64,000 nucleotides of DNA from Mustelus asterias (Eukaryota). The notes below the pieces were generated by a model, which saw only the letters and a program-made list of their open reading frames with translations, did not search any database and had not been told where the DNA came from. The DNA lies in contig NC_135823.1 of NCBI RefSeq assembly GCF_964213995.1, positions 62,001 through 126,000 on the forward strand, written 5' to 3'. Within the stretch, counting starts at the first letter, position 1. Each line of letters opens with the position of its first letter. A program made the position numbers and the translations under genes. Of the stretch, positions 13,687 to 41,385 are shown piece after piece.

Positions 13687-14054
13687 TTTCTCTCTTTCCC
13701 CTCGAGTTAGAGTTTTGGATCCTCGTTAAAGGCCAGGCGAGCGTAAAGCGTCTGTGGATGAAAAGTGATCAGTTAGTGCAATCCACATCATTATTATAGG
13801 GATAGGCGAGACCACTGAGTCCCCCACTCCACCCCTCCCCGCCCCCCCCCCCCTCCCGCCGCCCGCCACTCTATTCAATCGGTTCATAGCTGGAATGTAG
13901 CTCAACTCACAGTCACCCACCAATATTGAATAATCCTTAATCCACTCCCTAATATAAATCTAACTGTCGCAGTTTTGAGAGTTCCAATTGCCCAATGTTC
14001 TATATAGCTTTTTAGTGACCGGAATTCCGCTCCGCGTGCTGTGAAGAAGTGTTT

Positions 14055-15621: not shown

Positions 15622-15669
15622 CTCTTCATTCTGTTTGTGTTCTCAGTTCCTCATCACTGTTCGCGGTTC
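15622..15669 (-). CDS. Exon 5, cytoplasmic GTANSDEELRTQTE* (stop 15628-15626, donor after 15622)
   Basis: Acceptor CTTTCTAACAG, 48-nt exon, donor AGAG|GTGAA; phase 1 at both ends. Confidence 0.65.
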
Positions 15670-15808: not shown

Positions 15809-15928
15809 CTCTCTGCCGGTTCCTGCAGATCCTTCTTCCGGCCACAAGGACCAAGCCCAGAAGGAGAACCGCCGCAGCCGACAAACGCCCGGAAAACAGT
15901 AAATGACAGGTGGTCGGGAAGGGAGAAT
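15809..15928 (-). CDS. Exon 4, connecting peptide and transmembrane: DSPFPTTCHLLFSGRLSAAAVLLLGLVLVAGRRICRNRQR
   Basis: Acceptor TTCTTTTTGCAG, 120 nt, donor AGAG|GTAGC; ~22-aa hydrophobic segment followed by basic stop-transfer residues. Not shown in this frame by the ORF track. Confidence 0.82.
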
Positions 15929-17469: not shown

Positions 17470-18160
17470 CAACAAGGCCTATCGGCCTATCGAGCCTGCG
17501 CGACAATAGTCCCACCCAGGTCTCAACCACTTAATCCCAAATATTTACCCTGACACTAAGGGACAATCTACCATGGCCAACGCACCTGGCCTACACATCT
17601 TTGGACACTAAGGGGCAATTTAGCATGGCCAATCCACCTAACTCGCACATCTTTGGACATTAAGGGGCAATTTAGCATGGCCAATCCACTTAACCCGCAC
17701 ATCTTTGGACACTAAAGGGCAATTTGCCATAGCTAATCCAACTAACCTGCACATCTTGGACACTAAGGGGCAATTTACCATGACTGATCTACCTGACTTA
17801 CACACCTTTTGACACTAAGGGGCAATTCAGCCTGGCCAATCCACCTCGCCTGCACAGTTGTGGACACAAAGGGGCAATTTAGCATGGCCAATCCAACTAA
17901 CCTGCTGATTCATGACACTTGGGCTCAATTAACCATGGCCGATCCACCTGGCCTACACATCTTTGGACACTAAGGGGCAATGTAGCACGGGCAATCCACC
18001 TAATCTGCATATCTTTCGACACTAAGGGTCCATTTAGCACGGCCAATCCACCTAACCTGCACATCTTTCGACACTGAGGGGCAATTTAGCATGGTCAATC
18101 CACCTAACCCACACATCTTTGGAGTTTGGGAGGAAACAGGAGCACCCGCAGGAAACCCGG
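17470..18160 (-). repeat. SINE with internal tandem array of about 11 x 52-bp units
   Basis: Unit GACACTAAGGGGCAATTTAGCATGGCCAATCCACCTAACCTGCACATCTTTG, period 52. Confidence 0.85.
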
Positions 18161-18680: not shown

Positions 18681-18986
18681 CTCTCTGAGATGAGACACTT
18701 TCACTGAGAATACTTTCACTGGAGTTGACCTGAACGGTGCAAGTACAGCGAGCGCCGCTTCTCCAAGTTTCCGCCGGGAGGCTGATGTAACTCCTGACGG
18801 TGTAGGTCCCGTCCGGCTCCAGTGTCCCTGAATCGGTCTGTCCCTCGGTATCCCGTCCCGAAACATTCCAGAGGACGGGAAAGGAATCGGGAGACACGCC
18901 TCTGACCAAACACAACAACGGGACTCTTTCCATGGCGGGAATCTCATCCAGCGGCGGAGTGAGGAGGAATATGGTGGGAGAACCCG
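18681..18986 (-). CDS. Exon 3, C1-set Ig constant domain AGSPTIFLLTPP..LLCLVRG..VLWNVSG..PDGTYTVRSYISL..WRSGARCTCTVQ
   Basis: 306-nt open exon with acceptor TTTAG and donor AGAG|GTAGC. C1 motifs PxxFLLxP, LxCLV, W, DGTY, WxxG, CxV. A 99-nt intron separates it from the VJ exon. Confidence 0.9.
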
Positions 18987-19085
18987 CTAAATCCGGAAAA
19001 ACAAAAGGGGAACCCATTGACAAATGGAACAGGACACATTAATTGCTCTGAGGTCCCACATCAATGTAATAATAATGGAATTTAC

Positions 19086-19399
19086 CTGTAATCACTAACT
19101 TGGAGCCATTTCCGAATATTTGGGCCAGTAATATATCCCAGAATCATTTATCCGGGAATCCGCAATGGTTAGTGAATAAATACGCCGTTTTTCAGAAATC
19201 TCGCTGGAAAATCTCCCCTCAGCTGGGCTGTTCTGGTACGCTCTGTAAATGAAATCCATGTGGTTTCTCTCCCTCTGTCTGTACCAGAAGACAGAGCCAG
19301 CAGCTTGACCCTGGATGCGGCAGCTGAGATTAACAGGACTCCCCGCAAGGAGCGTCAGAACCGGCGGAGACTGGGACAAGGTGACCTGAGACATTGTAA
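19086..19399 (-). CDS. Exon 2, germline-joined VJ Ig domain: VTMSQVTLSQSPP..NLSC..VFWYRQ..YSLTI..DSGIYY[C]AQIFGNGSKLVIT
   Basis: Acceptor (CT)n-TTTCCCAG, donor ACAG|GTAAA. V-set hallmarks: first Cys, WYRQ, LTI, DSGxYY. A J motif FGNGSKLVIT lies in a shifted frame immediately downstream, with the frameshift at 19125/19126. Confidence 0.9.
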
Positions 19400-21508: not shown

Positions 21509-21551
21509 CCTGAAAGAGATGGAACAGTGCACAGATACCGAGGAAACTCAT
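21509..21551 (-). CDS. Exon 1, signal peptide MSFLGICALFHLFQ-(G)
   Basis: ATG in good context (ggacaATGa), hydrophobic 14 codons + 1 nt, donor CAGG|GTGAG; continues in frame into VTMS-QVTL of the V exon. Confidence 0.8.
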
Positions 21552-23164: not shown

Positions 23165-23650
23165 AGAACCATAAAACTCCTGTAGCGTAAAAGGAGGGCC
23201 ATTCAGCCCATTGAGCCTTCACCGCCAGCAATCCCACCCAGGCGATATCGCGGTGACCCCACATATTTAGCCTGCTAATTCCCCTGACACTAAGAGGCAA
23301 TTTAGCATGGCCAATCCACCTAACCTGCACATCTTTATCCATTAAGGTGCAATTTAGCATGGCCAATCCAGCATCCTGCACATTTTTGGATACTTAGAGA
23401 CAATTTAGCGTGGCCAATCCACGTAACCCGAATATCCTTGGACACTAAGGGACAATTTACCATGATCAATGTACCTCACCTGCACACCTTTGGACACTAA
23501 GGGACAACTTAGCATGGCCAATCAGTAAACTGGCACATATTTGGACACTAAGGGGCAATTTTGCATGACCAATCCAGAATACCTGCACATCTTTCGACAC
23601 TAAGGGGCAATTAAGCTAGTCAATCCACCTAACCAGCACATCGTTGGACA
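23165..23650 (-). repeat. SINE with 52-bp tandem array (~7 units)
   Basis: Same unit as 17470-18160. Confidence 0.8.
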
Positions 23651-31579: not shown

Positions 31580-32112
31580 TGTGAGGCAGAGCAATTTGGC
31601 CCATCGAGCTTACACCGGCAACAATCCCACCCAGGCCATGTCCCCGTAACCTCGCACGTTTACCATGGTTAATCCAGCCAAACAACACATCTCTGGACAA
31701 CAATTGGAATTTAGCAGGGCCAATGCACCTAACTGCCACATCTTTGGACACAAAGGGGCAATTTAGCATGGCCAATCCACTTAATCTGCAAATCGTGGGA
31801 CACTAAAGGGCAATTTAGCATGGCCAATCCAGCGAACCTTCCCACCATTGAACACTAAGTGACAATCTAGCATGGCGAATCTACCTAAACTGCACATTAT
31901 GGACACTCAGGGGCAATTTAGCAAGGCCAATCCACCTAACATGCACATCTTGGGACACTAAGGGGCAATTTAGCATGGGAGGAAACTGGAACACTCTGAG
32001 GAAACCCACGCAGAAATGGGGAGAACGTGCAAGCTCAACAGAAGCAGTGACCCAAGCCAGGAATCCAACCCGGATCCCTGTCAGTGCGAGGCACTGTGCC
32101 ACCGTGCCGCCC
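31580..32112 (-). mobile_element. SINE with 52-bp tandem array
   Basis: About 6 units plus head. Confidence 0.8.
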
Positions 32113-39561: not shown

Positions 39562-41385
39562 AACATAGAAACCCTACAGTACAGAAAGAGGCCATTCGGC
39601 CCATCGAGTCTGCACCGACCACAATCCCACCCAGGCCCTACCCCCATATCCCTACATATATACCCACTAATCCCTCTAACCTACTCATCTCAGGACACCA
39701 AGGGCAATTTTTAGGATGACCAATCAACCTAACCCGCACATCTTTGGACTTGGGAGGAAACCAGAGCAAACGCAGACACGAGGAGAATGTCCAAACTCCA
39801 CACAGATAGTGACCCAAGCCGGGAATCGAACCCATGTCCCTGGAGCTGTGAAGCAGCAGTGCTGACCACTGTGCTACCGTGCCGTACCGCTTGAGATAGA
39901 AAATTGCCTGAGACGGCAGCTCACTGTGGTTTTTCGTTTTTTACAGTTGAGGCGCTACACCTACCCAACAGCCTCCAGAGATCAGAAGCTGAAACACAAT
40001 GTTAAACCGCAGAGAGAAGACGGTTGTGCATTCAAGATAGATTAAGCTGATCAGAGAACCTGTTTGTTTACAATTAAGCCATATTCCAGGAACCTATTCC
40101 AAAGACAATTAGTCACTATTTGCAAGCATTCCGAGGATTGGGTACAATTCGCAGAAACCCCCTCTGATTCACAACATACGCACGCAAGTCACAAATAATT
40201 CGTAGTATATTTTCACTTCTCTTTATGAGGCAGCTTGCATCAGGAATCATGTGCAACCTCTTTACAGAATGAATTAGATTGGACACAATTACATTACGGC
40301 ATGCTGGCACAGTGGTTAGCAGTGCTGCCTCACCGCGTCTGGGACCTGGCTTCGATTCCCGCCTTGGGTGACTGCGTGGAGTTTGACGTTGTCCTCATGT
40401 CTGCGCAGGTTTCCTCTGGGTGCTCCGGTTTCCTACCACAGTCTGAAAGTGTGCAGGTTTGGTGGATTGGTCATGCTAAATTGCTCCTTAGTGTCCAACT
40501 ATCTAGAGGTCAGGTGGAGCAGCCATGCAGAATTGTCCCTTAGTGTTCAAAGATGTGCAGTTTAGGTGGATTGGCCATTCTAAATTGCACCTTTGTTTTC
40601 AAAGAAGTGCAGGTTAGCTGGATTGGCCATGCTAAATTGCCCCTGAGTGCCCAACGATGTCTGGGTTAGGCGGATTATCCGTGGTAAATCTGCGCAGTTA
40701 TGGGGATAAGGTGGGGTGACGTGACCTGAGTAAATTGGTGCTTCTTTCTGCACTGTAGGAAGTCTATGATTATATTCTCAATTCCTTTCGTTTCGCATTG
40801 TAACACAAAGGGTTCTACCCCCAGACGACAGGGACAGATTAACAGGAACACCAAAATGATAACGTGCCCCTCGAAAATGCGGAGCATTCTGATTTGGAAC
40901 TATATCACCAACTATTCCGTCACTGCCCCGGTTACAAATCTGGTGACTCCTTCCCTAAAATGAACTGTGAGCAAACACAGGGATTAAAGAGGGTGGGTCA
41001 TCATAGAATCATCAAACCCTACAGTGCAGAAGGATGCCGTTCCGTCCATCGAGTCTGCACCGACCACAGTTCCACGCAGGCACTATCCCCATAACCCCAT
41101 GCATTTACCCTAGTTGGTCCCCCTGACCAACTATCCCCATAACCCGATACATTTACCCTAGTTGGTCCCCCTGACACTAAGGGGCAATTTAGCATGGCCA
41201 ATCCAACTAACCGGCATATCTTTGGACATAAAGGGGCAATTTAGCATGACCAATCCACGTAACCCGCACATCCATGGACACTAAGGGACAATCTAGCCTG
41301 GTCAATCTACCTAATCTGCACATCTTTGGACACTAAGGGGCAATTTGGCATGGCCACTGCAGCTAACCTGCACATCTTTGGACAT
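39562..41385. mobile_element. SINE cluster (39562-39890 minus, 40300-40770 plus, 41000-41385 minus), two with 52-bp arrays
   Basis: Shared head, central and tail motifs. Confidence 0.8.

Follow-up and report, generated by a model that had tools for sequence, protein, structure and literature searches.

Gene structure at the locus

The window that we analysed is a stretch of 64,000 nucleotides of the Mustelus asterias genome (C23:62001-126000), and coordinates are counted from its first letter unless they are given on a contig. Its minus strand carries a gene of six exons with the layout leader-VJ-C1-transmembrane (TM)-tail and with canonical splice sites throughout. Exon 1 (21509..21551, 43 nt) encodes the leader peptide, starting with ATG and ending at a GT donor, and a spliced contig from one public sequencing run (X4) has a loose end that matches the 3' portion of this exon. 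Exon 2 (19086..19399, 314 nt, against 339 nt in the intact paralogues) holds a VJ domain in a single exon, as recognized from Pfam V-set (E 2e-11) and the paralogue alignment. The V-set domain covers the 90 residues upstream of the lesion described below, and 99 nt beyond this exon follows an open C1-set exon (exon 3, 18681..18986, 306 nt, Pfam C1-set E 3e-10). Exon 4 (15809..15928) encodes a stalk, with a conserved cysteine that is nearly invariant in the family, and the TM helix. Exon 5 (15622..15669) is cytoplasmic, and exon 6 (13707..13751) encodes a tyrosine motif, TLYARL, of ITIM/ITSM-like type. The intact paralogues are 303 residues long and carry this motif at their end; two paralogues match proteins labelled M. 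asterias in NCBI.

Two features of the window gene, a TM arginine and a second frameshift, were absent from the initial annotation, which had been made from the sequence of the window alone. A private Gly to Arg change (GGT to CGT) lies in the outer third of the TM helix. Exon 5 has a private 11-nt deletion (48 nt, against 59 nt in the paralogues) that leads to a stop 4 nt short of the end of the exon, and the tail ends before the tyrosine motif, the sequence of which is intact in exon 6 but is not reached in frame. Under the 50-nt rule for nonsense-mediated decay, a stop 4 nt from the last junction is predicted to escape. A 52-bp unit forms five arrays of 4-11 copies in the window (17552-18123, 23286-23650, 31659-31978, 40446-40676 and 41173-41384), one of them inside intron 3; these are likely expansions within a dispersed repeat.

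A 25-nt deletion at the second V-domain cysteine

Exon 2, read on the minus strand from 19399 to 19086, is bounded by AG and GT, is in phase 1, and translates as YYWPKYSEMAPS followed by a stop. Around the lesion the letters run TAT TAC TG/GCC CAA ATA, continue with TTC GGA AAT GGC TCC AAG, and end with TTA GTG ATT ACA G/GT at the donor; the initial annotation had described them in this way and had rightly remarked that the site is not a homopolymer. It had also placed a frameshift of 1 nt at the second V-domain cysteine. The frameshift is real, but the paralogue alignment that the annotation had proposed as a check, while giving uniform junctions, shows a loss of 25 nt: against its three closest paralogues (97-98% amino acid identity) the window copy lacks 25 bases between 19126 and 19125. 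These paralogues have an exon of 339 nt, a junction of the form YYC-A(I/M)RNYQNM(T/A)QI-FGNG and a CDR3 of 11 residues, and the 25-nt segment is retained in 16/16 other aligned genome copies, whose exon measures 338-342 nt. The deletion takes out the second cysteine and most of CDR3 and shifts the frame, which leads to a premature TAG at 19097-19095, codon 116, which precedes the last exon junction by 485 nt.

Several earlier proposals change with the size of the lesion. A repaired exon of 315 nt had been apparent because 25 equals 1 modulo 3, and the intact paralogue exon is one of 339 nt. The ultra-short CDR3 of three residues gives way to the 11 residues that the paralogues carry, and the suggestion that a short CDR3 points to a fixed ligand is lost together with the 1-nt assumption. 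Among 26 elasmobranch V domains from the database, CDR3 has 11 residues in 22, the remaining four having 10, 12, 7 and 7; it is conserved across shark orders, and the junctions are not variable among copies. A basking shark homologue shows an in-frame Cys to Trp change at the equivalent second cysteine, and a horn shark isoform is devoid of the 3' part of the V exon (entries P0010 and P0019).

We considered and rejected three further readings of the lesion. The 25-nt junction (TG at 19125..19126) and the 11-nt deletion in exon 5 each show a microhomology of 2 nt, but this does not mark a mechanism, as 16-17% of random deletions show 2 nt as well. The second deletion does not compensate for the first (-25 -11 = -36), since the frame is restored only in exon 5 and the stop at 19097 comes earlier. 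Rescue by a cryptic donor fails because only one of the three upstream GT(A/G) sites is in frame (19183), it is a poor match, and the cysteine would still be lost. A product without the V domain, made if splicing leaves out exon 2 (leader-C1-TM(Arg)-short tail), is conceivable in that exon 1 and exon 3 share phase 1 and an open frame of 170 residues results; the splice sites of exon 2 are intact, however, and no contig of the public runs joins exon 1 to exon 3, which makes this product highly unlikely.

Sequencing support for the deletion

To the window copy we compared the contigs of six different public runs. Over 18926-19182, contig 21 of run X3 agrees with the window copy at every base (0 differences, 0 gaps), reaching 199 and 57 nt past the junction on its two sides, and it also carries that copy's own base at 18997; the junction is thus backed by one contig, of depth 3.4, from one study. 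A loose end of X3 resembles a Tn5 adapter, which would mean a short-read library. The contigs of X1, X2 and X4 contain the undeleted form only. This is expected because the four near-identical copies (97-98%) collapse, and the absence of the deleted form from these contigs carries no evidential weight; X1 and X2, which come from one sample, show differing paralogue forms, and contigs drop minority variants. The same similarity among copies, with the undeleted contigs, is what an assembly or consensus error in a collapsed repeat would call upon. Such an error, one of the options in the initial annotation, is very unlikely because the X3 contig carries the deletion exactly, and a clean loss of 25 nt outside any repeat is atypical of consensus errors. 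The option of a null allele or pseudogene is the one that the data support, and we consider the window copy to be almost certainly null.

The X4 contigs are spliced, skipping the 99-nt GT-AG intron 2 and having loose ends that match exons 1 and 4, and therefore an intact paralogue form is transcribed. Among the contigs of the public runs we saw no transcript of the window copy or of the copy at 1454k discussed below.

The null may still be segregating, with other haplotypes holding the window copy with an intact V exon. An X1 contig over the junction pairs Ile108 with the Ala codon within 31 nt, a combination found in 0/3 close assembled paralogues and equal to the expected undeleted state of the window copy; no unplaced copy was found, 15/15 matches being on C23. 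The V exon has no private substitution, which places the 25-nt deletion on a short branch and suggests that it is young. Against this, the X1 contig is unphased to the private bases, carries the common base at 18997, and may be an allele of one of the three close paralogues (L002, L003 or L004). We regard a segregating allele as rather unlikely, and it is compatible with the explanation preferred below.

Absence of recombination signals

The initial annotation had offered an out-of-frame germline V-J join as one origin of the lesion and had named split, RSS-bearing relatives as its test. Our scan finds an RSS with at most 2 mismatches after 6/7 control V exons (8 loci were given, one of which was not parsed), as opposed to 0/27 family V exons, after which the best candidate has at least 5 mismatches. 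At the threshold used, 0 RSS are found in the 64-kb window, where shuffled sequence gives a mean of 0.7. Every family copy that we read has its VJ in a single exon. With this structure throughout, no RSS, and conserved CDR3s, the germline-join origin does not hold.

A RAG-made lesion could also take another form, with a cut made at the cryptic heptamer within the Tyr-Cys codons and then closed by end-joining. The left breakpoint does lie within TACTGTG, which is the cryptic heptamer used in VH replacement according to PMC3918983 and PMC3526766. However, the break is inside the heptamer and not at its edge, the best nonamer at a spacing of 12 or 23 reaches 2-3/9, with no RSS in the whole window, no split or RSS-bearing relative was found among the family V exons, and the second deletion, in exon 5, occurred without such a site. 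Both forms of the RAG explanation are largely refuted, and we consider them extremely improbable.

The array on C23 and its two subfamilies

A search of the genome recovers three copies at 97-98% and many more distant ones on C23. Between 0.08 and 1.71 Mb this contig holds 21 V-bearing copies of the window type (A), with V and C1 open in 9, the ectodomain broken in 11, and 1 interrupted by an assembly gap. Interleaved with them are 20 loci of a second VJ-C1 subfamily (B), with an alternation of about 105 kb at the window end; the counts of 21 and 20 are lower bounds, because only candidate regions were examined. The window copy is the outermost of the array, and no family exons were found in six stretches that cover C23 1-59,999.

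The B-type subfamily, of VJ-C1-TM structure, comprises L041 and L076 (C23:136001-152999) and 19 more loci up to 1.71 Mb. In the B-type neighbour of the window copy, V and C1 are open, the TM is uncharged, and the motif reads PLYASL. A and B could possibly be heterodimer partners. An outlying and more divergent A/B pair (L035, L050) lies at C23 3.23-3.27 Mb, and similar A and B copies (L039, L057) lie on contig C73. A 1-kb unplaced contig (L058, C5131:1-1000) carries the TM exon and exon 5 of the window family and probably fits the assembly gap of the 399k copy (L023). A further single-exon joined VJ domain without RSS, unrelated to the array on C23, is found at C1:175911800-175913800 (L068).

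Transmembrane arginine and loss of the tyrosine tail

A TM arginine occurs in four A copies, at C23 78k (the window copy), 1053k, 1102k and 1454k, by three different codon changes, and each of the four adjoins a non-Arg twin. AU tests on two trees of 18 rows each reject a single origin of the arginine (p-AU 1e-118 for V+C1, 2e-51 for TM-tail). No B-type copy that we read has a TM arginine at the equivalent position. A readable tyrosine tail is missing in 4/4 Arg copies versus 5/16 non-Arg TM exons (p 0.026), where the 16 include one V-less fragment, the 545k copy is unscored, and the TM exons of 436k, 1334k, 3230k and C73, which were not recovered in the scan, are left out. The association is modest overall (p 0.02-0.03). 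It was picked out post hoc, and decay is a confounder, in that 3/4 Arg copies have broken ectodomains; when copies are stratified by ectodomain, significance is lost (p 0.22 for open copies, 1/1 vs 1/8; p 0.5 for broken ones, 3/3 vs 4/6). Of the 11 broken ectodomains among the 21 copies, 8 belong to copies without a scored Arg, and so the death of copies needs no activating story. A broader test of basic TM residues against the tyrosine motif (124 database proteins, p 0.004) was set aside, as several automatic TM calls were wrong or non-family.

The private changes of the window copy are unevenly distributed. It has three private coding substitutions, which all fall in the TM or tail exons, whereas the 304 nt of the V exon contain 0; R166L is not private, being common to L003. 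Over the whole gene the copy is a mosaic, young in its 5' part and old in its 3' part, with private substitutions at 0.6% in the 5' half versus 3.1% in the 3' half. A weaker contrast of this kind, 0.7% vs 1.9%, is also present in its inhibitory twin L022, and the contrast between V and TM-tail is not present against L024 (p 0.6). An Arg or Lys in the relevant TM window corresponds to 4/2736 possible single changes, giving a chance of 0.8% at 0.6% divergence (5' half) and 4% at 3% (3' half).

The 1454k copy (L029, C23:1449100-1459099) has an open ectodomain with a TM arginine, a mutated exon 5 acceptor, an exon 5 stop and an altered exon 6. Its inhibitory twin at 1404k (L031, C23:1399100-1409099) has a near-identical V; the two differ by 1.2% in V as against 7.0% in TM-tail (p 1e-4). 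On this pattern the two loci are the best candidate for a live activating/inhibitory pair. In horn shark, the models P0016 and P0085 have a TM arginine and no tyrosine tail, and P0016 is 89% identical overall to the full-tailed P0012 and identical to it over residues 50-128; the horn shark tails are those of automatic gene models. Alternative splicing of an inhibitory copy also yields a short tail (P0004 vs P0313).

Relation to known receptor families

PRARP has a single-exon V domain with a J-like FGxG motif and no RSS, a V-C1-TM architecture and a cytoplasmic ITIM/ITSM-like motif; it is a disulfide-linked dimer on lymphocytes with a conserved chromosomal location, related to tetrapod and bony-fish V-C1 receptors and apart from Ig and TCR. 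The family described here has likewise a non-rearranging joined VJ exon with J-like FGxG and no RSS, the V-C1-TM layout of a membrane protein, with spliced contigs of an intact paralogue form, and two related gene types. Its cytoplasmic tyrosine motif is TLYARL in the intact A paralogues and PLYASL in B, and is encoded but out of frame in the window copy. Unlike PRARP, it forms a single array of about 21 + 20 copies that includes motif-less members with a TM arginine. PRARP is listed among the VJ genes in the MHC in PMC10751288, and is also mentioned in PMC11599192, whereas the contig of the array is C23 and that of every MHC class I match (140/140) is C8. We call the family PRARP-like, and only that, because no labelled PRARP sequence was found and the location tests were of no help; its features fit those of PRARP, with membership not proven. 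Most of the class I matches on C8 fall at 21-43 Mb, many of them near-identical duplicates.

In the C1 tree the family (41 rows) stands apart from 11 other C1 exons of the genome with support of 100/94, in a sample from which duck was dropped, in which the outgroups are not individually identified, and which holds no chicken PRARP row; the V tree places the family without resolution. Homologues are found in rays, sturgeon, gar, salmonids, coelacanth, lungfish, caecilian, turtles, crocodilians, lizards and birds, most of the bird matches being without a Pfam C1 match, and no mammal is named among the named homologue matches. A lizard homologue is labelled APH-1A, and 0/11 Aph-1 matches lie on C23. 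The Atlas gives only generic Ig names for the family.

In cartilaginous fish, germline-joined Ig genes have V and J fused in one germline exon. The window family shares this V + J arrangement and, unlike those genes, has no split RSS-bearing relatives, a CDR3 conserved across orders, and a C1 exon that falls outside the other C1 exons tested. Germline-joined Ig genes are mentioned in PMC12227049, which also describes UrIg, with 3 C1 domains, secreted and MHC-linked, and UrIg2, with 9 C1 domains and located within the Ig/TCR complex. As in these elasmobranch genes, a non-rearranging VJ exon precedes C1-set sequence, but the window gene has a TM, a tyrosine tail and a single C1 exon, where UrIg has three C1 domains and UrIg2 nine, and we reject identity with either. 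NKp30 (NCR3), a single VJ without C1 that is MHC-linked, is likewise rejected, since C1 is present here and the array lies on C23 with class I on C8.

A further comparison is with paired receptors. In PMC4258407 and PMC3210942, cattle KIR, PIR-A/B, KLRI and Ly49 consist of inhibitory forms with ITIM and activating forms in which a TM arginine without ITIM marks the use of FcR-gamma or CD3-zeta; the genome analysed here has two zeta/gamma-family TM exons. The array resembles these systems in its near-identical ectodomains, shared by an ITIM-type inhibitory form and a motif-less form with a TM arginine, and differs in that the ectodomain is an antigen-receptor-like VJ-C1. Activating members are short-lived in both, with 5/6 dead in cattle KIR and 3/4 Arg copies dead here, but the cattle activating tails have one origin and were spread by recombination (as PMC4258407 and PMC3210942 report), while here each Arg arose separately. 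The window copy has a TM arginine, no ITIM in frame and an inhibitory twin alongside; its ligand-binding domain is frameshifted in V, whereas that of the 1454k copy is open.

Origin and inactivation of the window copy

The explanation that we prefer, with fair rather than strong confidence, is that a germline 25-nt deletion inactivated a copy of a non-rearranging VJ-C1-TM receptor that was already of activating type beforehand; judged by its TM and tail, the window copy was probably once an activating paired receptor. The history would start with the duplication of an inhibitory VJ-C1 receptor gene, its intact copies remaining as surface receptors that presumably inhibit through the TLYARL motif. 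The window copy would then have gained the TM arginine and lost the tyrosine motif, giving a predicted activating twin that would signal through an FcR-gamma or CD3-zeta dimer and would have its ligand in common with its near-identical twins. The 25-nt deletion would have come later, by ordinary slippage or end-joining. With a stop that precedes the last junction by 485 nt, the gene is predicted to yield a transcript subject to nonsense-mediated decay, and no receptor.

The order of events separates this explanation from plain decay, in which one deletion killed an inhibitory copy and the other deletion and the TM arginine are drift. Decay is frequent in the array (11/21 copies with broken ectodomains), the window copy is its outermost member, Gly to Arg arises easily (a chance of about 4% at 3% divergence), and the association of Arg with tail loss is not significant when stratified. 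If the V deletion came first, however, both TM-tail changes must fit within about 0.6% divergence, where the arginine alone has a chance of 0.8%, and the arginine also accompanies tail loss in two horn shark models and in one copy whose ectodomain is open. We therefore judge plain decay to be unlikely. The switch from inhibitory to activating type, as we prefer to read it, apparently took place several times within the array.

The frameshift alone is of little consequence; the lesion is an ordinary knock-out, and the array is the interesting part. Tentatively, and at slightly less than even odds, we suggest that the shark VJ-C1 array behaves like KIR or Ly49, with activating members that would repeatedly arise by TM Arg and tail loss and then die, and that the window locus is a young and possibly segregating null. 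In the literature searched, no shark PRARP-like array or activating members are described, although Fu 2019, Ohta 2019 and Flajnik 2023 may contain such a description. Non-rearranging VJ-C1 genes are usually treated as relics of the gene split by RAG; if the paired-receptor reading is true, they would make up an innate recognition system under active turnover in cartilaginous fish. The twins at 1404k and 1454k, which have the same V and predicted opposite signalling, would permit a direct test of ligand and signalling.
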